DNA of 64,000 bases. It comes from Parasphingorhabdus sp. (GTDB lineage Bacteria > Pseudomonadota > Alphaproteobacteria > Sphingomonadales > Sphingomonadaceae). Numbering within the stretch: the stretch's first letter is position 1; every line of letters starts with the position of its first letter. The notes below the pieces were generated by a model. That model was not told the origin of the DNA. It saw only the letters and a program-made list of their open reading frames with translations, and made no database searches. Shown one piece after another: positions 34,522 to 50,624 of this stretch. The translations under genes and the position numbers were made by a program. The stretch spans positions 314 to 64,313 of the forward strand of contig NZ_JBALUN010000009.1 in assembly GCF_036963805.1 (NCBI RefSeq), given 5' to 3'.

Positions 34522-34546
34522 AACGTGTTTAGAAGGTGGAAGTTCC
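34522..34546 (-). promoter_or_regulatory. EcfG-type promoter (glutaredoxin/MauE gene)
   Basis: GGAAC-N16-CGTT exact. Confidence 0.8.
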
Positions 34547-34574
34547 TGATTAAAAAAACCGATGTGGAGCCAAG

Positions 34575-35195
34575 ATGGCACTAAAGCTTCAAGTTTCAGA
34601 ATTGATCGTTCCAAAATCCATTGAAACGACGCTCAAATCGGGCCGGAATATCTGTCTGCGTGCAATCCGAGCTGATGACGAAGAGAATATTGACGAGGGT
34701 ATCCGCGAACTATCCGATCAGTCGCGCTATTTGCGGTTCTTTTCCGGCTTCAAGGAGGCCCCGCCTTCGGTAGTAGAAAGACTTGCCGCCGCCGATGGGA
34801 GTGATCATATTGCATGGGGGATGATTGATATGGATCATCCGGATCAAAAGGCCTTTGCTGCAGCTCACGCGATCAGAGAGAGTAGCGATGATCGTTTCGG
34901 CGAATTTTCCATCGCGGTGCTCGATGAGTATCAAGCACAGGGTTCAGGAAGAATATTGATGACCACGGTCTTTCTGCGTTGTCTCATGGAAGATATAGAC
35001 ATGCTCGACATCCAAACCTTGCACGAAAATAAGAAAGCGAAGGCACTGGTGAAATCGGTCGGAGCGGAACTGGTAAAAACGGAGGGGTCAATCGCGTTCT
35101 ATTGTTTGAATATATCGTCCGCCTTGGCGTTACTATATGACAAGCACAATGCACCTGGAATCCAGTCTGTTTTTCAGGCCTTTGGAACCCGCTAG
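34575..35195 (+). CDS. GNAT-family acetyltransferase
   Basis: LSDQSRYLRFFS; EFSIAVLDEYQAQGSG. Confidence 0.85.
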   Translation: MALKLQVSELIVPKSIETTLKSGRNICLRAIRADDEENIDEGIRELSDQSRYLRFFSGFKEAPPSVVERLAAADGSDHIAWGMIDMDHPDQKAFAAAHAIRESSDDRFGEFSIAVLDEYQAQGSGRILMTTVFLRCLMEDIDMLDIQTLHENKKAKALVKSVGAELVKTEGSIAFYCLNISSALALLYDKHNAPGIQSVFQAFGTR

Positions 35196-35208
35196 CGTTT
35201 TAGGCGTT
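35184..35208 (+). promoter_or_regulatory. EcfG-type promoter (PLD gene)
   Basis: GGAAC-N16-CGTT exact. Confidence 0.8.
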
Positions 35209-35219
35209 GGGATCAGAGA

Positions 35220-36695
35220 GTGGCGAAAAGCGCCCTGAAAGAGGCCAATATCACAAGATTGCAACTAGAGCCGGGCCAGAATTGCTGGCGAGTAGAAGAG
35301 GCTCGGCAGGCCTCCGTCATTGTCGATGGAGAAGCTTATTTCCGGTATTTGCGTCACGCGATGGCGAAGGCAAAGCGGCGGATTATACTAGCGGGATGGG
35401 ATTTTGATACCCGCGTAGAAATGAACGATACCGAAAAGGATTTGCAGGGACCGCTGAAGGTTGGTGATTTTATCGACTGGCTGGTCGCGAGAAACCCCGA
35501 TCTCCAGATATACATATTGCGCTGGGATGTCGGGGCAATCAAATCTTTCGCGCGCGGTTCGATGTTCTTCAAGGTTCTAAAATGGCAGTTCCACCCCCGC
35601 ATCCATCTGAAACTCGATGGCCAGCATCCTACGGGTGCGGCCCAGCATCACAAGATCGTTGCGATTGATGATGACGTCGCTTTTTGCGGCGGCATAGACG
35701 TGACAGCTGGGCGATGGGACACGCGGACGCATGAACCCGGGCACCGCTACCGCAAACAGCCAAACGGCGAAGATCACAGTCCATGGCATGACGCATCGCT
35801 GGCGGTCCAGGGGCCTGTCGCAACGGCGCTCGCATCCTTCGCGCAGTCTCGCTGGCACAAGGCAGGCGGAAAGGATATGATTGAAGCCAACGGTTCGCAG
35901 GATTGCTGGCCGGACGATCTGAAGCCTGACTTTAAAGAGGTCGATATCGGTATTGCGCGCACGCAGCCGGAGATGGATGATCAGGAGGATGTCCGCGAGA
36001 TAGAGCAGCTTTATATCGACCTGATTCGATCCGCAAAGCGCATAATCTATGCTGAAAGCCAGTATTTTGCCTCGCGTCATATTGCGGCTGCCATCGCCGA
36101 GCGGCTGCAGGAACAGGATGGCCCAGAAATTGTTGTCCTCAACCCGATTTCATCGGAAGGGTGGCTGGAAGAACAGGTCATGGACACTGCCAGAGCGCGG
36201 ATTTTCGCAGCCTTGCAGAAGCGGGACAGGTTTAACCGGCTCCGTTTGTATCATCCGGTTAACGAGGCTGGCGAAGAAATATATGTCCATGCCAAAATCG
36301 TGATCATCGACGATCAGGTCATCAGGATCGGCTCTTCGAATATCAACAACCGGTCAATGGGGCTCGATACCGAGTGCGACCTGGTGATTGATGCTGGTGA
36401 CGATGATGAAGGCAGTGCCGCGCGCGAACAAATTTCTCGCATTCGGAACGGTTTGCTGGCCGAACATCTGGGTTCCAGCGAAAAGAACATTGCCGAGAAA
36501 TTTGAACAGACAGGCTCGCTGATGGAAACCATTCAGCTATCCCGGAAACCGGGCCGCACATTGCGTGATTACCAGGTGCCTAACTTAGACGACACCGAGA
36601 AATGGCTCGCCGACAACGAGATACTGGATCCGGAAAGCCCCGATGAGATGTTTGCGGGCATAACCAAGCGCGGCTGGTTCAAACGTTTGGGGTAA
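35220..36695 (+). CDS. Phospholipase D-family protein
   Basis: Two HKD motifs: HHKIVAIDD and HAKIVIIDD...GSSN. Confidence 0.93.
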   Translation: MAKSALKEANITRLQLEPGQNCWRVEEARQASVIVDGEAYFRYLRHAMAKAKRRIILAGWDFDTRVEMNDTEKDLQGPLKVGDFIDWLVARNPDLQIYILRWDVGAIKSFARGSMFFKVLKWQFHPRIHLKLDGQHPTGAAQHHKIVAIDDDVAFCGGIDVTAGRWDTRTHEPGHRYRKQPNGEDHSPWHDASLAVQGPVATALASFAQSRWHKAGGKDMIEANGSQDCWPDDLKPDFKEVDIGIARTQPEMDDQEDVREIEQLYIDLIRSAKRIIYAESQYFASRHIAAAIAERLQEQDGPEIVVLNPISSEGWLEEQVMDTARARIFAALQKRDRFNRLRLYHPVNEAGEEIYVHAKIVIIDDQVIRIGSSNINNRSMGLDTECDLVIDAGDDDEGSAAREQISRIRNGLLAEHLGSSEKNIAEKFEQTGSLMETIQLSRKPGRTLRDYQVPNLDDTEKWLADNEILDPESPDEMFAGITKRGWFKRLG

Positions 36696-36740
36696 TACGA
36701 CCTTTCCGATCACCGTATCAAACCGTCCGAATATTTTGAG

Positions 36741-36765
36741 GGAACCAGTTGTTGGGCTCTGCGTT
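36741..36765 (+). promoter_or_regulatory. EcfG-type promoter (microprotein-DUF421-DUF202 unit)
   Basis: GGAAC-N16-CGTT exact. Confidence 0.8.
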
Positions 36766-36791
36766 GGATCATCATGAAAAGGAAATCCGTC

Positions 36792-36881
36792 ATGCGCTAT
36801 TTTTGGAGGACTGCTGCGGCCGCAATCGTGTCCGTTGCCGTTCGAACCATCATCAAAAAACTATCAAGAAAAGAACGCTGA
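36792..36881 (+). CDS. 29-aa microprotein MRYFWRTAAAAIVSVAVRTIIKKLSRKER (not in ORF track)
   Basis: AAGGA RBS, EcfG-type promoter, similarity to 48003-48158. Confidence 0.7.
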   Translation: MRYFWRTAAAAIVSVAVRTIIKKLSRKER

Positions 36882-36968
36882 AGGCACTGACAGTGATAAG
36901 GCCAAGAGTGCCTGATTTCTTCAATTTTCCTCGCCTTTCGATATGTGTTGATGTGAAGGATATCGATA

Positions 36969-37520
36969 ATGCCATGGCTTAGCGCGCCGGTTACGAATGT
37001 CCTATGGATCGCCTTGTCGGCGATCCTTGTCTATGTAGTTCTAGTTGCTTTGACCCGATTGGCCGGGATCAGAAGTTTTTCCAAAATGAGTGGCTTTGAC
37101 TTTGCGATCACAGTTGCGATCGGCTCCGTCATTGCATCAGTGGTTATTGCAAAAGACCCGCCAGTCGCAAATGGTGCAGCGGCCCTCGTGATGTTGTTCG
37201 CTATCCAGATCGGATTTGCAGCATTGCGCAGCCGGTTTTCCGGCATAGAGGCTCTGGCTGACAACAAGCCGCGCCTCATCATGATCGGCAATGAAATTCA
37301 GTTTGATCAGCTCAAAAAATCGCAGATGACCGAAAGCGATCTGATGGCTAAGTTACGAGAAGCAAACGTTTTCAGCTTTTCTCAGGTTACAGCGGTCATC
37401 GCGGAAACGACTGGCGATGTTTCAGTTTTACATTCGTCGCAGGAAGATGCCAGGCTGCACCGGAAAATCACAACAGACGTGATTGGCGCCGACAGGCTTG
37501 GCAATGATCGCTTCGAATAG
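36969..37520 (+). CDS. DUF421/YetF membrane protein
   Basis: GIRSFSKMSGFDFAITVAIGS; AETTGDVSVL. Confidence 0.9.
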   Translation: MPWLSAPVTNVLWIALSAILVYVVLVALTRLAGIRSFSKMSGFDFAITVAIGSVIASVVIAKDPPVANGAAALVMLFAIQIGFAALRSRFSGIEALADNKPRLIMIGNEIQFDQLKKSQMTESDLMAKLREANVFSFSQVTAVIAETTGDVSVLHSSQEDARLHRKITTDVIGADRLGNDRFE

Positions 37521-37541
37521 TCTCGATTTTGGAATTTTTCG

Positions 37542-37976
37542 ATGAGTGACGGATCAAAGAACAATGAAGATCTTGCCGAAGACCGGACGGATCTTGCTGA
37601 TGATCGAACCGATTTGGCGGAGAAACGGACAGATTTCGCAGAAGACCGGACGGTTATGGCAAATGAACGAACCTTTGCCGGATGGATGCGAACAGGCTTG
37701 GCCGCTGTCGGAATCGGACTTGGTTTCAATGCCCTGTTTGGCGAGTTACAGCCCTTCTGGCTTCCACGCGGGATCGCTACTGCATTCATCCTGATCGGTG
37801 TTTTCATATTTTATGCGGCACAGAAAAACGGATGCGCGGTTCATGAAAGACTGGAATCGCATAGCTCCGAACCATTGCCCGGCGCAAATCTGCGTGCGAC
37901 CGCTATGGCAATGAGCACAGCCAGCCTTTTGCTTGTCTTCGGATTATGGTTGATGGAAGTGGAAAGCGGAGGATAG
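37542..37976 (+). CDS. DUF202/YidH membrane protein
   Basis: RTVMANERTFAGWMRTGLA. Confidence 0.9.
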   Translation: MSDGSKNNEDLAEDRTDLADDRTDLAEKRTDFAEDRTVMANERTFAGWMRTGLAAVGIGLGFNALFGELQPFWLPRGIATAFILIGVFIFYAAQKNGCAVHERLESHSSEPLPGANLRATAMAMSTASLLLVFGLWLMEVESGG

Positions 37977-38063
37977 GGCCTCGGTCAACCTCTTACGATA
38001 GCATAGCCCGCTGTTTCGCTGGCAAAACTACGGTCTTTCTTTTGATGGTCGTTGTGTTTGCGA

Positions 38064-38477
38064 TCAGGACAGTCTGAAGAGCACATCCACTTCTTCATGG
38101 TATTCTCCACCCGGCGCATCCGTGTTGCGCAGTATCTTCGCCTTTGGTCGAAAGCATGATCGGTTCTCCGCGATCCATCAAAGCAAGTCGTCGAGAGGAA
38201 TTCCAACCTCATCGCGCTGTACGCTAGAATAGCAATAAAAATGCAGGCCATCGATATCGATCAGTGCATAAGTTCCGGCGTGATCGCCTTCCTCTACCCG
38301 GATACTATTCTCGATTTCACCAACAGTATCACCGTTCAGATTGACCACTTCCTTGCCTTCAAAATGATTGTCAATTTCCTTAAGGGGAGGCGATTTTGAT
38401 GCCCACATCATCCAGCGCGCTGATGATGCGAATTCCGATATCCCGATGAAAGCGATGCCTTCTAATGTGTTTTTCAC
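38064..38477 (-). pseudogene. Hypothetical gene with a possible in-frame TGA at 38178-38180
   Basis: Reading frame stays open for 37 more codons past the stop (LLxWIAENRSCF...). Confidence 0.35.
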
Positions 38478-38607
38478 TTATAGCAGATTTTGTTGAAGTA
38501 CCCTAGTTCGCGGACTGAATCTCTCGATACGGAGGAGAAAAATCCAAAAAATATTTAGTTTGTATTGATAAATCTGGAACGAATGGGACGTTGCCGAGTA
38601 GTTTGTT

Positions 38608-38712
38608 TAGATGAGGTAGTACCCCCGAATAAATGCCCCATCTGAACTAGAAAGACCGGAAAATTTGCCGCACTCCTGACCTCCCGTCGTGCCTGCAAAT
38701 TTTCCGGTCTAA
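38608..38712 (+). ncRNA. Candidate EcfG-dependent sRNA with C-rich loops
   Basis: GGAAC-N17-GT upstream at 38576-38599; hairpin with ACCCCC loop; perfect 16-bp stem 38653-38668/38695-38710 enclosing GAC-CTCCC-GTC. Confidence 0.6.
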
Positions 38713-38730
38713 ATTTATGAAATTTGCAAT

Positions 38731-38760
38731 AAAAAAGGCCGGGTGCATTGCCCGGCCTTC
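38731..38760. terminator. Intrinsic terminator of the 38781-39008 gene
   Basis: AAGGCCGGG/CCCGGCCTT stem with an A6 tract. Confidence 0.8.
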
Positions 38761-38780
38761 CTGGATGCGGATCTGGAAAA

Positions 38781-39008
38781 CTATTCTTCGGACGGCATCT
38801 CTACGTCAACGTCCGGCACATCAACGGTCACTTCTTTTGTGCCAACTTCAACATCTGCAGTTTCAACATCAACTTCTGGCATCTCGCCAGCATCTGCAGA
38901 AACATCAACATCCATGGACGGCAATTCGCCTTCATCTGTCACTTCGGCTTCACATGCGGTCAGTGCCAGTCCGGCAATCACAGTTGCTGCAATAGAAATC
39001 TTTTTCAT
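38781..39008 (-). CDS. Small acidic lipoprotein
   Basis: LTAC lipobox; D/E/V-rich mature part. Confidence 0.8.
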   Translation of the reverse strand: MKKISIAATVIAGLALTACEAEVTDEGELPSMDVDVSADAGEMPEVDVETADVEVGTKEVTVDVPDVDVEMPSEE

Positions 39009-39039
39009 CTCGAACTCCCTTTCATTGGTTCAAGCGACC

Positions 39040-39064
39040 AACGATAGAAAAGGAGACCGGTTCC
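39040..39064 (-). promoter_or_regulatory. EcfG-type promoter (acidic lipoprotein)
   Basis: GGAAC-N16-CGTT exact. Confidence 0.8.
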
Positions 39065-39076
39065 AATATTTTTCGA

Positions 39077-39814
39077 TTATTCTCTACCCAGTCGCATGCG
39101 GAAAGCGTCGAGGTGAAAATAGCTGGGATCAAATTGGCAGATTTCTGCCAAACGGCTGGCATCACGAAAGACGATCCAGCCTTTTTCTCGATCGAGCAAA
39201 TCATCCTTTTCCAGTTGCCGTAGAACGCGATTGGTGTGGATTGGAGTCAGGCCCAGCGCGTCGGCAATGACAGTCTGTGTCAGCGGCATGCGAAAGCCAT
39301 CGCGCGTGCCTTCGTCGATGATCTGTATCCGCCGGTGGAGTTCGAGAAGGAAATGACCAATCCGCTCGCGCGCGGTTTGCTGTCCATTGCGCACGATCTG
39401 TTCGCGCAGAAATGCCTCTTCCTGAACCTGCATCCACCAGAAAGCCAAAGTCAATTTACCGGATTCGGTCAGTAATCGCCGGAATTCGGAAGGTTCCACC
39501 GACAGGGTCTCCAGTTCGGTTATCGAGAGAACCGAGTGATCAGCTTCGGCTGCAACCAGCACCTGCAAATCGAAAATATCGCCTGGCAGAAGCACGTTCA
39601 ATATCTGCCGGCGTCCGTCTTCCAGGGTTTTATACCGCACGGCCCAGCCTTGTTTGATGACCAGAACGCTATCCATCTGTTGGCCGGCGTCAACGATATC
39701 CAGATTGCGGTCGAAGCGTTTTTCTTTCCCTTCTAAGCCCATAACCCCATCCTGCACCACCTCATCAAGGTCCGCGTAAAATGAGATGCGGCGGAGCAGC
39801 GCCCTTTTGGCCAT
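39077..39814 (-). CDS. Crp/Fnr-family regulator
   Basis: DGRRQILNVLLPGD; ARERIGHFLLEL; PLTQTVIADALGLTPIHTNRVL. Confidence 0.92.
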   Translation of the reverse strand: MAKRALLRRISFYADLDEVVQDGVMGLEGKEKRFDRNLDIVDAGQQMDSVLVIKQGWAVRYKTLEDGRRQILNVLLPGDIFDLQVLVAAEADHSVLSITELETLSVEPSEFRRLLTESGKLTLAFWWMQVQEEAFLREQIVRNGQQTARERIGHFLLELHRRIQIIDEGTRDGFRMPLTQTVIADALGLTPIHTNRVLRQLEKDDLLDREKGWIVFRDASRLAEICQFDPSYFHLDAFRMRLGRE

Positions 39815-41313
39815 TATGTGGTTCCGTTCGGTTTGGGAAATGTCACCGTGCAGACCAAACCGTCCGGCGTCCAGTCCCGTTCAATGCTGCCATGCAAATT
39901 GCGGGTAATGCTGTGGTCGATGAGCGAAGATCCAAAGCCGCTATTAGAAGGAGATTCGGTAATCAATGGACCGCCCTTTTCCAGCCATATCAACTTAACC
40001 ATTTCGGTTTCTTTTCCTGCTTCGACATCCCATTTAATGTCTACCTCACCATCACGCTCTGCCAACGCTCCATATTTCGCCGCATTGGTCGCAAGTTCAT
40101 TTAGCACAAGCGACAGTGACACCATCGCATTCTCGGGAATTGTGAGGTCCGGGCCTGACACACTAACGCGAGGATAAGTCTGTGACAGATCATTGACCAA
40201 CGCCTTGAACGAACCCGTTACGAAATTGGTGTCGAGCAATATCTGCTGCGCCCGGTTCAAGGCGCGCAATCGGCTGGAAATACGTTCCATATAGTCATCA
40301 ATCGAGGTTGCTGATTTCTTGGTCAGCGTCATGATTGACTGCAGCGTAGAAAACAGATTCCGCAGCCGGTGATGCAATTCTCGGGTGTGAAGGCGTAGCT
40401 GGTCTTCCGTCTGAACCGAGTTTGTAACATCCTTGTTCAGACCCGTTAAGGTAGGCCTGCCGTTAACCAGCAAATGATCTCCAAATCCTTCAATCCAGCG
40501 AATTTCCTCCGATGGGAGCACAATACGAAATGTTGCTTCATATTTCTCTCCGAGGTTAGCCGCTGCGCTCATTGCAGTCACTACCGCATCTCGATCATCT
40601 TCGTGAATGCGGGCCATGGCGCTATCCAAATCAGCCAATTTTTCTCCGGCATCTTCACCCCATATCTTCATATATGCCCCGCCCCATTCTATGTGGCCAC
40701 TTTCAAGATCAATTCGAAAACTGCTGGTGTTGCTGAGTGCAAGCGTCAATTCGAGATCGGTTCGATTCTGTGCCGCTTGTCTTTGGGCTTTCTCCCGAAG
40801 CGCCATTTCCCGGCGCAATTCCATCTCGCTGATGACCAGGTCAGAAAAGTCGCGCAAATGTTGGATTTCAGAATCGGTGGGTCTGGCTCGCGGTTCAGTG
40901 TCTCCAATCCAGAATGAGCCCAGCACCATCCCATCGGGAGCAATGAGCGGTGCACCCGCATAGAAGCGGATATAGGGCTCACCAATCACCAACGGGTTGT
41001 CGCGAAAACCGGATTTGGCTGTGTCTTCAACGACCAACGGTTCCTGACCATCCACTACATGTGAACAAAAGGAAATGTCTCTTGCGGTGGATTCGGATTT
41101 GATGCCCACTGCCGACTTGAACCATTGCCGGTCGGCATCAACGAATGAGATGGATGCCATTGGTGCTTTGAAAATATCGGCGCAAAGCCTCGTGATTCGG
41201 TCAAATGCGACTTCTGGGGCGCTGTCCATAATGTTGTAATGCCGAAGTGTTTTCAGTCGCTCTTCTTCGATAACTGAAGATCGCTTTGGTTTAGCTTGCT
41301 GACCAGAATGCAT
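39814..41313 (-). CDS. GAF-PAS HWE/HisKA_2 sensor histidine kinase
   Basis: GAF IRFYAGAPL; ELHHRLRNLF; NELATNAAKYGAL; WLEKGGP. Confidence 0.92.
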   Translation of the reverse strand: MHSGQQAKPKRSSVIEEERLKTLRHYNIMDSAPEVAFDRITRLCADIFKAPMASISFVDADRQWFKSAVGIKSESTARDISFCSHVVDGQEPLVVEDTAKSGFRDNPLVIGEPYIRFYAGAPLIAPDGMVLGSFWIGDTEPRARPTDSEIQHLRDFSDLVISEMELRREMALREKAQRQAAQNRTDLELTLALSNTSSFRIDLESGHIEWGGAYMKIWGEDAGEKLADLDSAMARIHEDDRDAVVTAMSAAANLGEKYEATFRIVLPSEEIRWIEGFGDHLLVNGRPTLTGLNKDVTNSVQTEDQLRLHTRELHHRLRNLFSTLQSIMTLTKKSATSIDDYMERISSRLRALNRAQQILLDTNFVTGSFKALVNDLSQTYPRVSVSGPDLTIPENAMVSLSLVLNELATNAAKYGALAERDGEVDIKWDVEAGKETEMVKLIWLEKGGPLITESPSNSGFGSSLIDHSITRNLHGSIERDWTPDGLVCTVTFPKPNGTT

Positions 41314-41410
41314 AATTTACCTTTTAATCGCCAATTGTCCGCTACGCCAAGCCTAATTTCTCTGGCGTCCTTATCCTAACTGCGAACCAGCAGATTTGTT
41401 GCAATTTTTC

Positions 41411-41435
41411 GGAACAAACAAGGCTTCGGTGCGTT
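41411..41435 (+). promoter_or_regulatory. EcfG-type promoter (general stress protein)
   Basis: GGAAC-N16-CGTT exact. Confidence 0.8.
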
Positions 41436-41480
41436 CTTTTGAATGAACCCCGAGTGAAAATGAACAACAAGGAGTCCGCA

Positions 41481-41966
41481 ATGACCCAAGAGAATCTCGA
41501 AGAACTTTATGACATGATTGACGATGTCGGAACCGCCATGCTGGTGACGGAGAATAACGCTGAATTGCGAAGCCGTCCGATGACCGGCAAATTGCATCGT
41601 GATACTGGCGAAATCTGGTTCCTGACCGAAACCGCATCTGAAAAGATACGGGAAATTTCAAAAGATGGCACGGCCAACCTGACCTATGCTTGTCCGGAAA
41701 AGGAGACATATATCTCGATTTCCGGCAGCGCGAAAACGATCCGCAATCAAGATAAGATTGATGACCTATGGGGACCATGGGCCGAAGCATGGCTGCAATG
41801 CGAGAAGGATGACCAAAAAGTTTCTGCTATTTGCTTTAAACCGGAAATAGCGGAATATTGGTCATCGCCATCTTCTACAATAGTCCAAAGCTGGGAACTG
41901 GCCAAAGCCAAGATCACCGACGAAAAGCCCGATCTGGGTGAAAACAAAACTGTGAAAATAGCTTAA
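41481..41966 (+). CDS. General stress protein, pyridoxamine-oxidase-like FMN-binding fold
   Basis: AMLVT...LRSRPM...IWFLT...SEK...AEYWSSP. Confidence 0.85.
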   Translation: MTQENLEELYDMIDDVGTAMLVTENNAELRSRPMTGKLHRDTGEIWFLTETASEKIREISKDGTANLTYACPEKETYISISGSAKTIRNQDKIDDLWGPWAEAWLQCEKDDQKVSAICFKPEIAEYWSSPSSTIVQSWELAKAKITDEKPDLGENKTVKIA

Positions 41967-41984
41967 AATCATTTCACAAGCATA

Positions 41985-42015
41985 CAAAAAAGCGGGGTTT
42001 CAGCCCCGCTTTTTA
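41985..42015. terminator. Bidirectional intrinsic terminator
   Basis: AAAAAAGCGGGG-loop-CCCCGCTTTTT. Confidence 0.85.
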
Positions 42016-42041
42016 ATTGCCTATATAATTTAAATTGCGAT

Positions 42042-42332
42042 CTATCTGCGAGCGAGCAGGGCGCCGACGATCAAGCCTACACCTGCCGTCACCAGCAATG
42101 TGCTCATTGGATTTTCTCGAACCGCCTCGCGCGCTTTTGCCTTTCCTTTGGAGCCAGCATCGAAAGCATTAGATCTCGCTTCTCCAGCTTTCTGTTTTGC
42201 TGTTGCACGGAGCTCTGCAGCGTTTTCCTTGGCGTCAGCAGTGACAGATTTCACCAGATTGGAAAAATCCTGCTTCAACGAGTTCATATCTTTCTTTACG
42301 GCTCCTAATTCTTCGGAATAATTGCCGGACAT
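42042..42332 (-). CDS. DUF883/ElaB-YqjD family protein
   Basis: VRENPMSTLLVTAGVGLIVGALLARR. Confidence 0.88.
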   Translation of the reverse strand: MSGNYSEELGAVKKDMNSLKQDFSNLVKSVTADAKENAAELRATAKQKAGEARSNAFDAGSKGKAKAREAVRENPMSTLLVTAGVGLIVGALLARR

Positions 42333-42364
42333 TGTTTTCTCCTTTTTTGATTGCATATAGCTTC

Positions 42365-42389
42365 AACGAGCAATGGGTTTAATCGTTCC
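42365..42389 (-). promoter_or_regulatory. EcfG-type promoter (DUF883 gene)
   Basis: GGAAC-N16-CGTT exact. Confidence 0.8.
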
Positions 42390-42482
42390 CAAAAGACGCG
42401 AATTTGGTGAAAAATAATCGACTCTTCCCTTGCAACCCTTTTTGTTTTGATGCGTATGCTTCCCATCACGGAGTAAATTTGA

Positions 42483-43259: not shown

Positions 43260-43267
43260 TCGAGATT

Positions 43268-43867
43268 TCAGGGCACTTCCGAGACGATTTCATCAACTGC
43301 GCCGATGATATTTTCCAAAGCGGTTTCCGTGGGATTTATTTCACCTTCGGACGCTGCAGTGAAACGGCCATTTTTCAAAATGCCTGCAAGCGTTTTTCGG
43401 GCACGTGAAACACGGCTTTTCATCGTTCCGATAGCGCAGCCAGCAATCTCTGCGGCCTCTTCGTAAGCATATCCGCCAGCGCCGACCAAAATAATTGCTT
43501 CGCGCTGATCATCAGAAAGTTCCATCAACCCACGCTGCAAATCGGCAAGGTGGAGCGGGTCCTGCTGCGGAGCAGGCGCAGATAATATCCGTTCGGCCAC
43601 AATCTCATCATAGTTGGCGGTAAACTTCTTCCGCCGCATATTGGAAAAATAGGTATTGCGCAGGATGACAAAGGTCCAGGCCCGCATCGAAGTACCTGCC
43701 TTGAACCGCTCGCGCGCCGCCCATGCTTTGAGCAAAGTGTCTTGCACGAGATCATCTGCCAGATCGGCGTTGCCGGACAGGCTGCGGCCAAATGCACGCA
43801 GGTGCGGGATGGTCTCTGCCAGTTCCTTCTTGAAATCTGCAGCGCTGAGTTGCTTGTGATCACTCAT
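43268..43867 (-). CDS. ecfG: ECF sigma factor EcfG/SigT
   Basis: LRAFGRSL, DLVQDTLLKAW, AWTFVILRN, GTMKSRVSRAR. Confidence 0.92.
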   Translation of the reverse strand: MSDHKQLSAADFKKELAETIPHLRAFGRSLSGNADLADDLVQDTLLKAWAARERFKAGTSMRAWTFVILRNTYFSNMRRKKFTANYDEIVAERILSAPAPQQDPLHLADLQRGLMELSDDQREAIILVGAGGYAYEEAAEIAGCAIGTMKSRVSRARKTLAGILKNGRFTAASEGEINPTETALENIIGAVDEIVSEVP

Positions 43868-44081
43868 TCGATGGGGATCCGGAACCTGATGAACTGTCGC
43901 TGTCGTCCAGCTTGTCCAGCAAGGCGAGCATGTCCTCAGGCAATGGTTCCTGAAGCACGTTGTGATACATGGTCTTCAGACCTGCTCCCAATCTTTCCTG
44001 TGCTTCAACGTGAATCATATCTTGCTCTTCGTCCTGCTTCGCTTGCCCAGGTTGTTCATCTTTGTTGGTTGGATCCGACAA
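43860..44081 (-). CDS. nepR: Anti-sigma factor NepR
   Basis: LGAGLKTMYHNVLQEPLPEDMLALLDKL; overlaps the ecfG start; GGAAC-N16-TGTT at 44139-44115. Confidence 0.88.
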   Translation of the reverse strand: MSDPTNKDEQPGQAKQDEEQDMIHVEAQERLGAGLKTMYHNVLQEPLPEDMLALLDKLDDSDSSSGSGSPSNE

Positions 44082-44199
44082 TTTTGCCTCGTTTTACTAA
44101 ACTCATGTGAAGTCAACACATGTCCTAGAAGAAAGTTCCATAGAGGCAAAGCAGAAAAATTTCCACTCAATGAATGTCAGTCACAACCGATAAATGCCA

Positions 44200-44640
44200 T
44201 CATTCCGGTTTCATCACGTTATTCGTGGGCAAACCCAGGCTGCAAAAATTTCTGAAAATCTCGCTCGTTTCGTTGCTCACATCTTTGCGACCAAGTATCT
44301 TATCCAACGGATTATCCGATGAAATTTTGCCAGATTGAAATAATATGTTGGCCATATGCCAATCCGGAAATTCGCGTTCTGGTTTGCCGTCTTTGGAGAG
44401 AATGACGATACCATTATGACGCGGATCATTGGCAATGATCGCCATGCAATTGTTCACGCTTTCCGGCGCACCTTCGAGCAGCTGCATGAAATTGGTGCCA
44501 TTGAAAACGAGTAGACCTGTAATTTCGTTTAGTTCGTTATTGCGCTGGGCGGATTCAACAATTTTCAAGAAGTCAGCCTCTTGCAGGCCCGCCTTGGCGG
44601 TGCTGATGTAGACCAGCGATCTGATGGAATTTTGCGACAA
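44200..44640 (-). CDS. Single-domain BLUF blue-light sensor
   Basis: LVYIS, RNN...ITGLL, FMQLLEG, DPRH, FPDWHM; likely TTG start. Confidence 0.9.
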   Translation of the reverse strand: MSQNSIRSLVYISTAKAGLQEADFLKIVESAQRNNELNEITGLLVFNGTNFMQLLEGAPESVNNCMAIIANDPRHNGIVILSKDGKPEREFPDWHMANILFQSGKISSDNPLDKILGRKDVSNETSEIFRNFCSLGLPTNNVMKPE

Positions 44641-44745
44641 CCGATACTTCCTTACACCCAGCGCACGGTATGCCATGCTAAACCGTAACGCCTGCTAGCA
44701 CAGGATTTTACATTTTACACTAACATAGGTTAGGGGGCGATACCG

Positions 44746-46092
44746 TCACTCAACCGGGCGGTTATTGTCCAGCAAATCTGGTTCGGACTGCCCGGATCGT
44801 TCGGAATCCACCAGATGTTCGACGTGATCTTCTGGTGAAACGTCGAAATCGGTTTCGGACGCGGTTGGTTTCGTTTGTTTGGGGGCAGAGGCACCCTTTT
44901 TGGAGCCAGATCTTTGTACTACCTGATCAGGTAACCCGCCGTCAAAACGCAGCCGGTAAATCGGCTCCGGCAGAGCAAAACCTTCATCTTCCAGCGCATT
45001 TTTCGTTACGCGGATTGCCGCGCCCCGTGCTTTCTTGAAATCGCTTTCGCGCTGATCCACCCAGCCGTGAAAAGCGATGATAATGTTGGAATCGCCCACT
45101 TCCCTGATTTCCGCCGTGGCTTCGGGATCATCGAGCACATAGTCCTGACCGTTAATCGCGCGCAGGCCCGTATCGACCGCCGCGGCCGGGTCATCATCAG
45201 CGTCCACGCCCAGCTCAAAGGTAAAACGCCTTTGCGGGTTGCGGGTATAGTTTAGTATTTCGGCTTTGAAGACGGTTGCATTGGGTATGCGCAAATGATT
45301 GCCCTCAAGCGTCATCAATATCGTCGCGCGGGACGTCAGACGAACTACGCGACCTTCCTGCTGACCGACCAGGACATGATCGTTTGCGCGAAATGGCTGC
45401 CGGATGCTCAGCATGATACTGGAGATATAGTTATCTACGGTATCGCGCAGCGCGAAGCCAACCGCGAGGCCGATAACGCCGGCACCGCCAAGTACTGCGC
45501 CAATCGCGGCAGTCGCCCCGAGTATGTCTAGTGCGATGAATATCCCCAGGCCAATGAAAATCACCCGCACCGAACTGGCAACGAGTTCGGCCAGAAAGAC
45601 ATTGGGCGTGATCTTTTGCCAGAACGATTTCAGCGAGGCGATGAAATGGCCAAATAATCCAACCAGTATTGCCACCAGCAGTGCAACACCTATCAACGGC
45701 AGCGCAGCAAGAAATTGGTCGAAACTGCTGCTGAGATCATCAACAACCGGCTCGACATTGGAGCCGACAGACAAATCGCGTTCGAAATCAGTTTCGACAG
45801 TGACAACACCGGACACGCGCTGCGCAATAGCGCTGGCCCGGTCTATCGCAGCCTGATCTTCGAGCGTTCCGGAAAGGCGCACCACACCGGAATCGACCGC
45901 GACCCTGATATTGTCAAAACCGTCAATCTCGCCAAAAATTCCCCGGAGGCGCTCGGCTATAACCTCATCATCTTCCCCAACAGTTTCCGCGTCTATCGCT
46001 GGCTGCGTGGGTGCTGCTGCCTCTTCCGCGTCAACTTGAGCGGCAAGCTTTTGAGTAGGAGCGCCAAGTATCGCAACTGCCGCGGCGAACAT
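44746..46092 (-). CDS. BON-domain MscS mechanosensitive channel
   Basis: VRVAVDSGVVRLSG; GFALRDTVDNYISS; IRQPFRANDHV. Confidence 0.9.
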   Translation of the reverse strand: MFAAAVAILGAPTQKLAAQVDAEEAAAPTQPAIDAETVGEDDEVIAERLRGIFGEIDGFDNIRVAVDSGVVRLSGTLEDQAAIDRASAIAQRVSGVVTVETDFERDLSVGSNVEPVVDDLSSSFDQFLAALPLIGVALLVAILVGLFGHFIASLKSFWQKITPNVFLAELVASSVRVIFIGLGIFIALDILGATAAIGAVLGGAGVIGLAVGFALRDTVDNYISSIMLSIRQPFRANDHVLVGQQEGRVVRLTSRATILMTLEGNHLRIPNATVFKAEILNYTRNPQRRFTFELGVDADDDPAAAVDTGLRAINGQDYVLDDPEATAEIREVGDSNIIIAFHGWVDQRESDFKKARGAAIRVTKNALEDEGFALPEPIYRLRFDGGLPDQVVQRSGSKKGASAPKQTKPTASETDFDVSPEDHVEHLVDSERSGQSEPDLLDNNRPVE

Positions 46093-46142
46093 GAAAAAAT
46101 CTGGAAATTTGTTGAATATACGCGCCTCCCGAATTTGTTCCT

Positions 46143-46167
46143 AACGCTCTTCCAAAAGAAAAGTTCC
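46143..46167 (-). promoter_or_regulatory. EcfG-type promoter (BON-MscS gene)
   Basis: GGAAC-N16-CGTT exact. Confidence 0.8.
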
Positions 46168-46247
46168 GGGTCAAAAATAAAATATATTTGGGAACGCTCA
46201 TAGGGGCTGGCGGTTGATTGGGTAGACTTCCAAAAAAAGAGGACATT

Positions 46248-46688
46248 ATGACAAACGAACAAACCAACACCATCCTGAACGACGTTCTGGAAACGCTGAT
46301 CGATTCAACCGACGGCTATGAAAAAGCCGCCGAAGTAGCTGATCGCCCGGCTTTTAAGCAACTTTTTGGGCGCCGTGCTGCCTCACGTCGTGCGATGGCT
46401 GCTGATGTACGCAACCACATTGTCGAACTTGGCGGAACGCCTGATGACGATGGTTCGATCCTGGCGAACATGCACAGGACATTTCTGTCAATCCGTGCTG
46501 CGGTGCAGGACAATGACAATGCCGCGATCGAAGCGGTCGACAATGGCGAAAAACATCTGCGCGAACAATTTGAAGACGCACTGGAAAACGATGACCTGAG
46601 CCCGTCCGCGCGCGCTTTGCTGAAGAAATATCAGGGCGAACTCCGCGCTGATGGCCGGCTGATCGATCAACTGGAAGACGCTGCGTAA
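46248..46688 (+). CDS. PA2169/DUF2383 four-helix-bundle protein
   Basis: LNDVLETLIDSTDGYEKAAE; GGTPDDDGS; GEKHL. Confidence 0.88.
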   Translation: MTNEQTNTILNDVLETLIDSTDGYEKAAEVADRPAFKQLFGRRAASRRAMAADVRNHIVELGGTPDDDGSILANMHRTFLSIRAAVQDNDNAAIEAVDNGEKHLREQFEDALENDDLSPSARALLKKYQGELRADGRLIDQLEDAA

Positions 46689-46727
46689 TCCAACCGCGCA
46701 AAACCCCACGAATGAAAGGAATTTAAC

Positions 46728-46913
46728 ATCGAATATGGTATTATTGGTTTAGTCATCCTTGCTTTGGATATCTGGGCGCTGCTGAGCGTTTGGGGTAGCG
46801 GGTCATCTGTCGGAAGCAAGATTATCTGGAGCGCGATCATCCTGATCCTTCCGCTAGTCGGACTAATTTTATGGTACTTTATTGGACCAAAAGGTAGTGC
46901 TGCTGCTGTATAG
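46728..46913 (+). CDS. PLDc_N-domain small membrane protein; ATC at the expected start
   Basis: EYGIIGLVILALDIWALLSVW...KIIW..IILILPLVGLILWYFIGP; AAAGGA RBS upstream of ATC; no in-frame ATG. Confidence 0.65.
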   Translation: MEYGIIGLVILALDIWALLSVWGSGSSVGSKIIWSAIILILPLVGLILWYFIGPKGSAAAV

Positions 46914-47044
46914 CAAACTATAACCACATTGTGGGTGATCTACCTGGATCACAAACTTAGCCCCGGCAGCCTCGCTGTCGGGGTTTTTTATGATGATATC
47001 AGATACGGAACGGAACCAATATCTGGTTCCAGCGTATGTCGAGA

Positions 47045-47926
47045 ATGGAAAACTCGGTAGACACATCACTAAACACGCTCGAAATCCTGATTGAGCAGCT
47101 CAAATCCATGTGGGAGGGGCTGGTCCAGCTAATGCCCAGCCTTGTCATTGCGATCCTGTTCCTGATTGTGACCTGGATCATCGCCCGATTTGCGAGCAAA
47201 ATCGCAGATCGCATCACTGCCAAGACCAATATGCGGCCCTCTCTCCAGGAATTGATCGACACTCTCGTCCGGATCAGTATCTGGACGGTTGGCTTGTTGG
47301 TCTCATTGACGATATTGCTTCCGGGATTGACGCCGGGCAGTCTTGTTGCCGGGCTTGGTATCGGTACCGTCGCTATCGGTTTCGCGTTCCAGGATATTTT
47401 CGAGAATTTCCTCGCCGGAATTCTGATTATGTTGCGCGAAAAGATGCGCATCGGTGATTATATTAAATGTGACGATATTGAAGGTAGGGTTGAAAAGATA
47501 CTGCTGCGCGAAACGCATGTTCGCAAGCTATCCAATGAATTGAACATCGTGCCGAATTCCATCCTTTTTAAAAATCCGGTTGAGATACTCACTGATAAGG
47601 ACCAGCGTCGCCACGATGTCGTTGTCGGCGTGTCCTATGATACCGATCTGGAAAACGCGCAGGCAGTCATCAGAAAAGCCGTTGAGGAAACCGAAGTCGT
47701 GGACACGAACAGAACGATTGATGTTTTCGCCTGCGAGTTCAATTCAAGTTCGGTGGACTACAAGGTCAGGTGGTGGTCCGGATCCGGGCAGCGCGAGATG
47801 CATGACAGCCGCGATCAGGTGGTCCGCAACATCAAGCGAGCGCTTGACGATGCAGGCATTGAAATTCCGTTCCCGTACATCACGCATACTTTCAAGGAGA
47901 AGATCCCACTCGCTTCCAATGATTGA
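47045..47926 (+). CDS. MscS-family mechanosensitive channel
   Basis: GFAFQDIFENFLAGILI; GIEIPFP; GGAAC-N16-CGTA at 47012-47036. Confidence 0.92.
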   Translation: MENSVDTSLNTLEILIEQLKSMWEGLVQLMPSLVIAILFLIVTWIIARFASKIADRITAKTNMRPSLQELIDTLVRISIWTVGLLVSLTILLPGLTPGSLVAGLGIGTVAIGFAFQDIFENFLAGILIMLREKMRIGDYIKCDDIEGRVEKILLRETHVRKLSNELNIVPNSILFKNPVEILTDKDQRRHDVVVGVSYDTDLENAQAVIRKAVEETEVVDTNRTIDVFACEFNSSSVDYKVRWWSGSGQREMHDSRDQVVRNIKRALDDAGIEIPFPYITHTFKEKIPLASND

Positions 47927-48002
47927 GGGCGATGCGTACCAATTGACATAAAAAAACTCCCGGCCTTTAACGGGCCGGGAGCCTTTATTCGTTTGGCTTT
48001 AA

Positions 48003-48158
48003 TCAGGCAGTCTGCGGTGGATAAGCCGTCGTGTAACTGTCTTCGTCGACACGCTCGTCACCGTCTTTCCGATTTTCCTGTATCTTCTTGATGATCATTT
48101 TCGCAGCGGCTGATACGGCAGCGGCTGCGAGGGTTCTGATAATATAGCGTTTTGCCAT
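48003..48158 (-). CDS. 51-aa small protein MAKRYIIRTLAAAAVSAAAKMIIKK...
   Basis: GGAG RBS; GCAAC-N16-CGTT at 48211-48187; paralog of 36792-36881. Confidence 0.7.
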   Translation of the reverse strand: MAKRYIIRTLAAAAVSAAAKMIIKKIQENRKDGDERVDEDSYTTAYPPQTA

Positions 48159-48241
48159 GATAGCATCTCCTTGGTTATGCCTGATCAACGCCGCACGTTT
48201 GATTTCGTTGCATCAAGCGTGCGGCGGTGTTGTTTAAGGTA

Positions 48242-48691
48242 CTACGCGACCTTGTCCATTTCCGCCGGTTTGCGCTCGTCAAACTTCCGGAGAAGTTCGC
48301 TGGCCTTTTCCTCGCTCAAACCTTTTTTCGCCACCGGGAAGATATCATTCTCTTCTTCTTCCATATGGTGTTCCAGCCGATGTTTCAGCGTCTTGAACCG
48401 CGTCAGCCAGCCGGTATCGTCGAAATCCTTGTCGGACAATTCTTCGAAATAATCGTCGATTTCCTTGTGCTCGGCAACCGAATGGCGGCCTTCATCCTGC
48501 ATTTCCGGACGGCCCAGCATTTCGGCATATAGAGACTGCCCCTCCGCATTGGCATGCGCGGACACGTCTATGCGAAGTGTTTCGAATGCCTCTCGCCGTT
48601 CCTTGGCGTCGCCGCTCGTATCGGCAACACGCTCGAGCATCTCGCGATGCTTGTCATGGTCTTCTTTCAGACGAATAAAAATATCAGTCAT
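48242..48691 (-). CDS. Hemerythrin-domain protein
   Basis: EDH, HANAE, EHKEID, LEHHMEEEE. Confidence 0.88.
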   Translation of the reverse strand: MTDIFIRLKEDHDKHREMLERVADTSGDAKERREAFETLRIDVSAHANAEGQSLYAEMLGRPEMQDEGRHSVAEHKEIDDYFEELSDKDFDDTGWLTRFKTLKHRLEHHMEEEENDIFPVAKKGLSEEKASELLRKFDERKPAEMDKVA

Positions 48692-48733
48692 TTAGTTTTC
48701 CTTTTGTTGGGGGTTTGGGGTGCGCTAGCTTCG

Positions 48734-49141
48734 TCACGCCGCGCGGAGGGATTTCTCAATCTGATCGATCGGCGAGTTGGTCAGGGTTTTGTCGAGTTCA
48801 AGAATGATCTTGTCTTTCACTTCCTGATGTAAAACCGGACGTACTTCGCCGAGCGTATCGGGGTCTGCGACGAAAACAAGATGATCATAATCTCCGTCAT
48901 GCGCGCGATTGTAAAGATGGTGCGCCAACTGCTTCGAGAAGGTCGCTTCATCAGTCTCCTGCTGAGAGGATTCCGGAACATAGGAACCAGAGGGTCCCTC
49001 TAACGCCAAATCCTTCGGCTCCAGTTCACCCTCTGATTTGAGACTTACATCGCCGGTCTTGTCGGTGTTCCGGAACATCTTCGCGCCCGCGCCGGTGGCG
49101 ACCACCACGAGGCTGTCTTTCGGAAATCTGGTATTTCCCAT
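48734..49141 (-). CDS. Host-attachment / baeRF12-family protein
   Basis: LVVVATGAGAK; EATFSKQLA; LVFVADPDTLGEVR; LDKTLTN. Confidence 0.85.
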   Translation of the reverse strand: MGNTRFPKDSLVVVATGAGAKMFRNTDKTGDVSLKSEGELEPKDLALEGPSGSYVPESSQQETDEATFSKQLAHHLYNRAHDGDYDHLVFVADPDTLGEVRPVLHQEVKDKIILELDKTLTNSPIDQIEKSLRAA

Positions 49142-49173
49142 TGGTAGTTCCTTTCATTGATAGCTTGTGCATC

Positions 49174-49198
49174 AACGAATGGGGATGGAAAAGGTTCC
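49174..49198 (-). promoter_or_regulatory. EcfG-type promoter (host-attachment-hemerythrin unit)
   Basis: GGAAC-N16-CGTT exact. Confidence 0.8.
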
Positions 49199-49248
49199 AG
49201 GAAAACGGCGTCAGGGCGCAATATTCGCGAACATTATGACCAGCAGAC

Positions 49249-49464
49249 TCAAGTTAGGGGGTTTGCTCTTGCCAGCGCCAGATCACGGACAAATTTTTCA
49301 TATTCGATTTTCCGTCCCGCCGCGTCCGGAATACGGAGCAAATAGGAGGGATGGACGGTGATCAGCAATCTCTGATTGTCCTCCAGATCGAAAAACTGCC
49401 CGCGATATCGCGACAGCGTGATCTTTTTCCCGATCAAGCAATGTGCCGCCGTGCTGCCCAGAAC
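49249..49464 (-). pseudogene. 3' remnant of a UdgX-family uracil-DNA binding protein gene
   Basis: VLGSTAA...RG...ITVHPSYLLR...FVRDL; N-terminal part absent. Confidence 0.8.
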
Positions 49465-49880
49465 CGGTTCTCGACCCGCAATTTGCGTGCGACCTCGACC
49501 AGTTGCTCCATCGTGTGGTCCGGACTGCGGATAATCCCCGACGACAGGAAAAGCCCCTCGATATAATTTCGCTTGTAAAAATCCAGCGTGAGATCGACAA
49601 TCTCCTGCACGGTGAACGCCGCGCGGCGGACATTGCTCGACGTCCGGTTGATGCAATAGAGGCAATCGAACATGCAGTAATTGGTCATCAGGATTTTGAG
49701 CAGCGAGATACAGCGACCATCCGGCGCATAGCTGTGGCAGATGCCCATGCCTGTCGTCGATCCGATACCGCCGGATTTCAGACTATTGCGCTTCACCGAC
49801 CCGCTGGAAGCACAGGAAGCATCATATTTTGCGGCGTCCGCGAGGATCGCCAGCTTTTCGGCGCGATTCATTTTGGGCAT
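49461..49880 (-). pseudogene. 5' remnant of a DNA modification/repair radical SAM gene
   Basis: ADAAKYDASCASSG, GICHSYAPDGRCISLLK, CMFDCLYC; truncated after RVENRF. Confidence 0.85.
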
Positions 49881-49898
49881 CCGCTAGCATTATCACAT

Positions 49899-49913
49899 GT
49901 TCATGATATGTTC
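49899..49913. promoter_or_regulatory. Alphaproteobacterial LexA box
   Basis: GTTC-N7-GTTC, 19 bp upstream of the radical SAM start codon. Confidence 0.8.
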
Positions 49914-49987
49914 CAACAAAACGTCATGCGGTGGCAACTATTCCGCCTGTCGTCGGTTGTTGCGGGAGATCGGGGAGAAAAAGCCAA

Positions 49988-50497
49988 ATGTTTTCAGATG
50001 ACACAACAATCAACCTGATCCTCAAGATCGCAATCCTTGGACCGGTCGCGCTGGTCTGGGTAGTGATCAACGTGCGTGTTGTCGGATTGCGCTCATTCTC
50101 CAAAATGACCGCCTTCGATTTTGTAACGACGGTGGCAATCGGATCACTGCTGGCGACCGCGATGACGGCTAGTTCCTGGCCGGGCTATTTGCAGGCAGTG
50201 GGCGGAATCAGTGCCTTGCTGCTTGCCCAATTTGTCATCAGCAAATTTCGCAGGGCATCGGATAGCGCCAAAGACGCTATATCCAATGATCCCGTTTGGC
50301 TGTTCAGGGAGGGGGAATTTCTGGAAGACAACATGGACTGTGCAAGGATTACCAGAGACGATCTTTTCGGGAAAATGCGCGAGGCAAACGCGCTCAAGAT
50401 TTCCGATGTTCACGGTATCATCCTCGAACCCACTGGTGATATTTCGGTGCTCCATGGCGGGGAACCGGATAATGAAATTCTGCCGGGCAGGGATTGA
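49988..50497 (+). CDS. DUF421/YetF membrane protein (second copy)
   Basis: GLRSFSKMTAFDFVTTVAIGS; LEPTGDISVL; GCAAC-N16-GGTT at 49934-49958. Confidence 0.9.
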   Translation: MFSDDTTINLILKIAILGPVALVWVVINVRVVGLRSFSKMTAFDFVTTVAIGSLLATAMTASSWPGYLQAVGGISALLLAQFVISKFRRASDSAKDAISNDPVWLFREGEFLEDNMDCARITRDDLFGKMREANALKISDVHGIILEPTGDISVLHGGEPDNEILPGRD

Positions 50498-50624
50498 CCC
50501 GTCGGTTTCGGTGCAGTGGTAAATTGCATCCCTAGACTATTTTGGAACCATGCCGGACGTCGCTTGTTGGTGATTGCAGAGGGGCAATTTGTTGTCTCTT
50601 CATCTAGGAATGAAGGAATACAAA

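Follow-up and report, generated by a model that had tools for sequence, protein, structure and literature searches.

Can a conjugative element carry a general stress response (GSR) complete with the promoters through which its sigma factor would act? The question is raised by a 64-kb stretch of a Parasphingorhabdus sp. genome (C9:314-64313 of a 3.90-Mb assembly in 67 contigs, designated C1, C2 and so on), hereafter the window, in which genes for PhyR, NepR, EcfG and an HWE-family sensor kinase lie among putative stress genes beside the backbone of an integrative and conjugative element (ICE). A preliminary description of this DNA had proposed at least 16 promoters following or approaching the published sigma-EcfG consensus, GGAAC-N16-CGTT (PMC7083833, PMC3892343, PMC6599016), in front of the genes of this block. 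Our analysis makes it very likely that the sites are genuine promoters of sigma-EcfG, the ECF15-type extracytoplasmic function (ECF) sigma factor of the GSR, and that together they wire a self-contained GSR module carried as ICE cargo. Comparative evidence appears to support 15 of the 16 sites that had been listed, leaves one of them, at 49934, doubtful and without support, and adds one that the list did not contain, at 38576(+).

The consensus was searched as a -35 element (GGAAC) and a -10 element (CGTT) separated by 16 nt, with 100 dinucleotide-preserving shuffles as the null. The window contains eight exact matches, all between 34.5 and 49.2 kb and exactly those of the preliminary description, compared with 0.51 expected from the shuffles, none of which reached eight. 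One-mismatch matches number 28 versus 13.2 expected, and the five that had been named as promoters are all in this set. Across the genome, the excess of the motif is restricted to a spacer of 16 nt, at which 44 exact matches are found, compared with 23-32 at spacers of 13-15 and 17-19 nt. Eight of these 44 fall within the 0.47% of the genome that constitutes the stress island (Poisson P about 1e-10); by open reading frame (ORF) calls that are crude for counts of intergenic and promoter-positioned matches, all eight are intergenic versus about 9 of the 36 elsewhere. A comparable motif density in the backbone or the housekeeping regions had been named as the observation that would speak against a regulon, and it was seen in neither. 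The ICE backbone (33.4 kb), in which no site had been noticed on a first reading, has no exact match and seven one-mismatch matches, none of them promoter-positioned, and the housekeeping flank lacks exact promoter-positioned sites. Outside the island, promoter-positioned exact matches amount to 6 at spacer 16 versus 1-2 at control spacers, and one-mismatch matches to 64 versus 42-50. These counts point to a modest resident regulon outside the island, in which roughly a third of all recognisable sites in the genome are concentrated.

When spacer columns were included, training a position weight matrix on orthologous sites led to over-fitting of the spacers, and several true exact sites scored lower than intragenic noise; sites were therefore graded by consensus class together with positional and comparative criteria. 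Other transcription signals do not share the enrichment. Sigma-70-like promoter matches within the block (window 33500-53200) are not enriched and, if anything, scarce (11 versus 18.3 expected in shuffles, standard deviation 4.6), and a terminator scan returned 24 hits versus 23.5 expected, so that operon ends are taken from gene spacing only.

The 16 listed sites behave as a coherent promoter class; all have a 16-nt spacer, and the definition of the class admits 17 nt as well. G at the first position, the AAC triplet of the -35 element and the GT of the -10 element are invariant in all of them, the second base of the -35 element is G in 12 and C in 4, and the bases flanking the -10 GT vary. 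The 15 nt upstream of the sites are A+T rich (64%, compared with 48% for the genome), the base directly after the -10 element is usually G, and an A occurs 9 nt past this element in 12 of the 16 sites, which may mark the transcription start. As the preliminary description had held, every site lies on the same strand as a gene and points at it. With start codons picked by their Shine-Dalgarno context, 26-64 nt separate the end of the -10 element from the probable start codon, the exception being a mechanosensitive channel (MscS) gene whose first ATG the -10 element abuts. The back-to-back arrangement of divergent sites that had also been noticed occurs three times (41378/41411, 42365/42432 and 46143/46191). 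Published EcfG sites likewise have a nearly invariant AAC in the -35 element and a flexible -10 element (PMC7083833), and lie within about 100 nt upstream of coding sequences on the same strand (PMC6599016).

Conservation adds a further line of evidence. Among 18 species genomes of the genus (G001-G018), five (G001, G003, G005, G012 and G016) have the whole block in synteny at 55-83% protein identity, and several others have partial loci. In most or all loci possessing the gene in question, the motif is kept with a diverged spacer upstream of orf75 (which encodes a 75-aa acidic lipoprotein-like product), the kinase gene, the PNPOx-like gene, the DUF883 gene, phyR, nepR, BON-MscS, the DUF2383 gene and MscS.

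This retention matters most for the regulatory genes, whose sites are the degenerate ones. A two-mismatch site, GCAAC-N16-AGTT at 41378-41402(-), precedes the GAF-PAS-HWE kinase gene (39814-41313) and the overlapping Crp-family gene (39077-39814); the nine orthologous kinase loci have GCAAC-N16-CGTT 40-61 nt upstream, with a similar start of the spacer. The phyR gene (42483-43259) lies behind GCAAC-N16-CGTA at 42432-42456(+), also two mismatches from the consensus, and its orthologues keep this distance of 25-28 nt from the start, with GGAAC-N16-CGTT or CGTA and a similar spacer. The nepR-ecfG operon (43268-44081) is headed by a one-mismatch site, GGAAC-N16-TGTT at 44115-44139(-); genus-mates have GCAAC-N16-TGTT, and the -10 TGTT recurs in all loci examined except G012 (GGTT). 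All three two-mismatch sites of the earlier list read as described there. Conservation despite diverged spacers in orthologues and paralogues supports the degenerate kinase, phyR and nepR sites and, through them, the earlier suggestion of feedback on these genes, which we regard as plausible. EcfG autoregulation is a common feature of EcfG systems (PMC7083833).

Sites in front of the putative effector genes are in several cases conserved as well. The exact site at 39040-39064(-) serves orf75 (38781-39008), and five relatives have an exact motif there, with N16 or N17, at 31 nt and with unrelated spacers. Divergent from the kinase site, an exact site at 41411-41435(+) faces the PNPOx-like "general stress protein 26" gene (41481-41966); relatives in which this gene is intact have GGAAC-N17-CGTA. 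Divergent from the phyR site, an exact site at 42365-42389(-) faces the DUF883 gene (42042-42332), and the motif is kept as CGTT or CGTA in most genus loci examined, with no match at one mismatch or fewer in G001 or G002. The third divergent pair joins an exact site at 46143-46167(-), upstream of BON-MscS (44746-46092) and conserved in relatives as GGAAC-N16-CGTA, to a one-mismatch site, GGAAC-N16-GGTT at 46191-46215(+), upstream of the DUF2383 gene (46248-46688), for which five relatives have a TGTT -10 element. From the 69-nt gap that separates them, the BLUF gene (44200-44676) is probably co-transcribed with BON-MscS. MscS (47045-47926) is preceded by GGAAC-N16-CGTA at 47012-47036(+), one mismatch from the consensus, and four relatives have GCAAC-N16-YGTW in exactly this place, directly against the first ATG. 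Another ATG in the same frame follows 9 nt after the first (window 47012-47047). Because of this close spacing of the -10 element and both start codons, the MscS mRNA may be leaderless or nearly so.

The remaining supported sites complete the map. An exact site at 49174-49198(-) precedes the Host_attach/baeRF12 gene (48734-49141) and the hemerythrin gene (48242-48691), and a chromosomal hemerythrin paralogue has GCAAC-N16-CGTT upstream. The 88-aa acidic lipoprotein-like gene (50625-50891) follows a one-mismatch site, GGAAC-N16-TGTT at 50544-50568(+), and its paralogue at C1:383458, 72% identical, has an exact site upstream. At the left of the block, three exact sites lie at 34522-34546(-), in an intergenic position 32 nt before the ATG of the glutaredoxin-MauE gene (33734-34489) and with a T-rich upstream flank; at 35184-35208(+), overlapping the stop codon of the GNAT gene and upstream of a PLD/cardiolipin-synthase-like gene (35220-36695); and at 36741-36765(+), ahead of genes for a 29-aa microprotein (36792-36881), YetF-1 (36969-37520) and DUF202 (37542-37976).

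The additional site, GGAAC-N16-AGTA at 38576-38600(+), lies in a 303-nt gap (38478-38780) and appears to head a non-coding transcript. At the aligned position, five genus-mates have GGAAC or GCAAC-N16-NGTT, and the same five share a conserved non-coding stretch of about 125 nt on the 3' side of the site. RNAalifold predicts for this stretch (about 38607-38725) a long stem around a C-rich loop, with seven base pairs kept by changes on both sides. A search of the block with Rfam returned a tRNA and a tRNA fragment and no match for the RNA at 38607-38725, which looks like an EcfG-dependent small RNA. It recalls GsrN, the sigma-T-dependent small RNA of Caulobacter (PMC5869019), likewise a small structured RNA with a C-rich loop and an EcfG-type promoter within the GSR; the likeness to the RNA predicted here is one of role only, without a sequence or Rfam relationship.

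The block itself spans 18.5 kb (33.7-52.2 kb) and was mapped with Pfam. Its order is Grx-MauE, GNAT, the PLD-type enzyme, YetF, DUF202, the 75-aa lipoprotein-like product, Crp, the GAF-PAS-HWE kinase, the PNPOx-like "general stress protein 26", DUF883 and PhyR, followed by EcfG, NepR, BLUF, BON-MscS, DUF2383, MscS, a microprotein, hemerythrin, Host_attach, a second YetF, the 88-aa lipoprotein-like product and DUF2254. All four regulators are full length. PhyR matches the Pfam models PhyR_sigma2, PhyR_sigma-like and Response_reg, i.e., an N-terminal sigma-like part and a C-terminal receiver, and reaches 352.7 bits with NCBIfam NF006623 (cut-off, 240). NepR scores 41.7 bits with PF18557 (cut-off, 25.7), and its gene (43860-44081) lies directly upstream of ecfG (43268-43867) with an 8-nt overlap. 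EcfG matches the ECF region 2 and region 4 models as well as PhyR_sigma2 and is 79-83% identical to the sigma factor of the GSR loci of genus-mates, all of which keep the GAF-PAS-HWE_HK arrangement of the kinase. Between nepR and BON-MscS lies the gene for a short BLUF blue-light sensor (minus strand), found at the same position in a second GSR locus of this genome and in all syntenic blocks of genus-mates (40-45% identity); this position suggests light input into, or output of, the GSR in the genus.

By family membership, and by analogy with the well-studied PhyR-NepR-EcfG partner switch and with what has been published on EcfG from two other sphingomonads, the module would operate as follows. 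A stress signal would act through the GAF-PAS-HWE kinase, possibly with light input via the adjacent BLUF protein, leading to phosphorylation of PhyR. Phosphorylated PhyR would then capture the anti-sigma factor NepR and free EcfG, which would direct RNA polymerase to promoters of the form G(G/C)AAC-N16-(C)GT(T). The 16-17 promoters would drive about 17 transcription units comprising 22 of the approximately 25 cargo genes, with predicted roles in membrane, osmotic and redox protection or encoding microproteins and lipoproteins, and the small structured RNA. Those in front of the kinase-crp operon, phyR and nepR-ecfG would close a positive feedback loop.

The context of the block is that of a mobile element. 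The first 31 kb of the window are ICE backbone, with a relaxase/DUF3363 gene (5036-6781), a TraG coupling protein gene (8708-10717) and a trbB-trbI cluster (trbB, trbE, trbL, VirB8, CagX and TrbI, 21.8-31.0 kb), along with HipA, LuxR and RND-efflux inserts. A tandem pair of tyrosine-recombinase genes (31294-33746, +) forms the left border of the cargo bay. The right end of the ICE (52654-53072, -) comprises a 94-nt segment (52654-52746), a complete tRNA-Arg(CCG) gene (52829-52905) and, to the right of the latter, a 44-nt 5' fragment from a second tRNA-Arg(CCG), whose anticodon stem differs (53031-53072), beyond which lie the housekeeping genes nth, dapB, cobB, thiF/moeB, coaBC, ubiB and ubiE. 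The host tRNA-Arg(CCG) gene is interrupted at about nucleotide 44, and the ICE brings a complete copy whose anticodon stem is compensatorily changed. In the nearest relatives, G010 and G017, an uninterrupted tRNA-Arg(CCG) lies next to this nth flank and the site is unoccupied; in G010 the tRNA gene is followed by unrelated chromosomal sequence. Their relatedness is judged from one protein (UbiB, 92-93% identical) and one flank of 8 kb, which is 80% identical and collinear.

A second ICE in the same genome helps to delimit the cargo. It extends from C1:838 to about 75.7 kb (75749), with a backbone of 79-84% nucleotide identity and backbone proteins 72-96% identical to those in the window. Both elements share an integrase pair placed immediately behind trbI, as well as the 94-nt end segment (C1:75656-75749), and differ in cargo; the C1 element contains no EcfG-type sites. 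A shared backbone, integrase pair and end segment around other cargo indicate that the stress block occupies a defined cargo bay. The C1 element ends 1.1 kb short of a tRNA-Lys(ttt) gene. On contig C20 (C20:4429-5882), a 45-nt 3' fragment of tRNA-Arg sits beside a third, distantly related integrase gene; its linkage to the window is not assembled. Several elements may be stacked at tRNA-Arg(CCG).

Within the genus the GSR is distributed unevenly. Eight of the 18 species genomes, including the three closest to this strain and complete single-contig genomes, have no PhyR by protein search and Pfam model and no EcfG orthologue, which is unexpected for a sphingomonad genus. The orthologue of the flank that borders the genus-mates' block lies on contig C4 in this genome and is without the block. 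A search among 5.8 billion proteins gave 81% identity for the closest PhyR. Megablast of the block against the PLSDB plasmids returned a single 0.7-kb match to Grx-MauE at 73% identity, and therefore no plasmid known to PLSDB carries the block.

The strain nonetheless has another GSR locus, on contig C11, in the order orf75, kinase, PhyR, EcfG, NepR, BLUF and DUF2383 and with proteins 59-78% identical to those of the island. Motifs precede the same genes as in the island, often with the same variant base (GGAAC-N16-TGTT at nepR, GGTT at the DUF2383 gene), and that of orf75, GGAAC-N16-CGTA with one mismatch, lies at the island's distance of 31-32 nt. In a tree of PhyR and EcfG, the ICE copy, the C11 copy and the genus clade form three roughly equidistant lineages (74-78% identical). 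The DNA of the C11 locus has almost no match in the nearest relatives. Since both loci and the chromosomal paralogues of cargo genes use the same consensus, cross-recognition between the two EcfG copies is to be expected.

How well does the proposal of an ICE-borne sigma-EcfG regulon withstand its alternatives? It is scarcely credible that the motif cluster is a product of chance or base composition, or that chance produced some of its degenerate members. Such an origin would leave unexplained why exact sites exceed expectation so strongly, all intergenic and correctly oriented, why the excess is specific to one spacer length, and why the motif outlived its spacers in orthologues and paralogues. 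Several observations nevertheless count against our proposal, and those favouring chance are among them. Two-mismatch promoter-positioned matches occur near background density (10 in the island versus 9 in the backbone), so that the sites at 41378, 42432 and 49934 stand only on comparative evidence. For the last of these, GCAAC-N16-GGTT at 49934-49958(+) in front of YetF-2 (49988-50497), there is no supporting motif before the paralogue on C6 and no comparative support. Another seven one-mismatch matches, located within island genes, resemble background. The exact sites before Grx-MauE, the PLD gene and the microprotein-YetF-1 unit have no conserved counterparts in relatives, where the flanks differ in arrangement; for the PLD orthologues in particular, no conservation of the motif was found upstream. 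The site at 48187-48211(-) (GCAAC-N16-CGTT, one mismatch), which precedes the gene for a 51-aa microprotein (48003-48158), is held with moderate confidence because it overlaps a palindrome with a 15-bp stem (48189-48226), and no convincing site was found upstream of the GNAT gene, a PRC-like ORF or the DUF2254 gene. Finally, the best NCBIfam subfamily model for EcfG yields 191.6 bits, below its cut-off of 219, in a comparison that contained no ECF15-specific model. Many ECF factors read AAC/CGT-type boxes, the motif alone cannot name its sigma factor, and further ECF genes are present at C2:509181, on C21 and C10, and at C11:22110. That a different ECF factor serves these promoters is still very improbable: the motif precedes nepR-ecfG and phyR in both loci and in all relatives, and the C2 factor, which shares only 37% identity with the island EcfG, lacks a motif of this kind upstream. 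The gene families also match published EcfG regulons (PMC6599016), and the consensus is identical to that of EcfG in two sphingomonads (PMC6599016, PMC7083833).

A separate doubt concerns whether the block is cargo at all, as opposed to a resident chromosomal GSR locus beside the ICE or a separate island accreted in tandem. The distance of 19 kb between the integrase genes and the tRNA junction is unusual, the syntenic block of genus-mates occupies a stable, conserved chromosomal setting in which ICE genes are absent for 20 kb around, and the window contig starts inside the ICE backbone, leaving the left end unassembled. We consider this alternative improbable, given that the block sits between two backbone pieces common to the C1 element, inside an interrupted tRNA-Arg gene that is intact in two relatives which have neither PhyR nor EcfG, and that no internal tRNA-like repeat separating it from the backbone was found. 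A different arrangement, unlikely in our estimation and yet deserving attention, would make the ICE regulators redundant passengers, with the resident C11 EcfG driving the cargo genes and the island serving as a pre-wired effector set. The common consensus of both loci would allow it, identity between the two EcfG copies reaches 85% for region 2 and 79% for region 4, and both EcfG paralogues of Sphingopyxis granuli transcribe the same promoters (PMC7083833). On the other side, none of the four ICE-borne regulators is truncated, and they have conserved autoregulatory promoters of their own. This arrangement is compatible with, and not exclusive of, a functional GSR module on the ICE.

If that module is indeed ICE cargo, a broader scenario suggests itself, which we advance tentatively and with a little less than even confidence. 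An entire sigma regulon, comprising kinase, PhyR, NepR, EcfG, a sigma-dependent small RNA and about 22 effector genes with cognate promoters, would have been captured en bloc from the chromosomal block that is syntenic in genus-mates and moved by a conjugative element, as one plug-and-play unit, into a lineage that appears to lack the GSR; the GSR would then be gained and lost as a mobile module in the genus. Ordinarily the GSR is regarded as a core trait that the class inherits vertically. A literature search for PhyR or EcfG in connection with an ICE or genomic island found no relevant paper, which is weak evidence of novelty.

Much of what the block contains is familiar. Sphingomonas melonis Fr1 (PMC6599016) and Sphingopyxis granuli TFA (PMC7083833) share with it the consensus, the invariant AAC, the flexible -10 element, the location of sites within about 100 nt and an autoregulated nepR-ecfG, as well as targets such as a Crp-like regulator, general stress protein 26, Host_attach, small secreted proteins and microproteins; the published S. 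melonis EcfG regulon includes the families Crp, general stress protein 26, PRC barrel and Host_attach (PMC6599016). The arrangement of phyR divergent from nepR-ecfG with an HWE kinase alongside is the primary one of PhyR-NepR-EcfG systems. In promoter type, autoregulation and target families, this is a textbook GSR, and the promoter map is a well-supported example and not a new principle. The difference lies in its concentration: the S. melonis and S. granuli regulons are described across the genome, whereas here about a third of the recognisable sites are packed with their regulators into the 18.5 kb of cargo. Multiple EcfG copies are common in the class (PMC3892343), and two EcfG-type loci per genome, EcfG1 and EcfG2, are known from Rhizobium etli (PMC3892343) and S. 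granuli (PMC7083833); unlike those, the second full set in this strain resides on an ICE, is about 75% identical to the other, and both sets occupy DNA absent from the nearest relatives. What is less ordinary, then, is a complete cascade with nearly its whole regulon as ICE cargo in the chromosomal gene order of genus-mates, in a host whose closest relatives are without a GSR while it already has a second, diverged GSR island.

The element itself resembles the Tn4371- and ICEMlSym-like ICEs of Alpha- and Betaproteobacteria, which integrate into tRNA genes and have trb-type type IV secretion systems, and whose relaxase, TraG, trbB-trbI, tyrosine recombinase, tRNA insertion and modular cargo bays are all matched here. 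It departs from them in the tandem integrase pair 19 kb from the junction, in the split tRNA gene for which the element supplies its own copy, and in a cargo that consists of a regulatory cascade with its regulon and not of catabolic, symbiosis or resistance genes.

The portability of a sigma regulon thereby becomes directly testable, in a genus in which about half of the species lack the system. Would moving the ICE into a naive relative confer multi-stress resistance at once, and how do two diverged sets of EcfG, NepR and PhyR cross-talk in one cell? For the study of the GSR in marine sphingomonads, the conserved, predicted EcfG-driven small RNA and the BLUF gene beside nepR offer additional leads.

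Some minor features of the two islands may be recorded. The 29-aa (36792-36881, +) and 51-aa (48003-48158, -) microproteins are paralogous, with the common motif R-T-x-A-A-A-x-V-S...I-I-K-K, and each is encoded behind an EcfG-type site (36741, exact, and 48187). A radical-SAM-like ORF with weak Pfam matches (49434-49880, in window 49249-49944, -) seems to be truncated or frameshifted. Upstream of this ORF, a one-mismatch site, GGAAT-N16-CGTT at 49920-49944(-), forms a back-to-back pair with the doubtful one at 49934(+). The C11 locus belongs to a stress island of its own (L024, C11:1-12200), in which an IS5-type transposase fragment, a large catalase, an FAD oxidoreductase and a Dps-like ferritin are followed by the GSR genes and a PLD fragment, and in which a 78-aa protein is encoded behind an exact EcfG site between NepR and BLUF.

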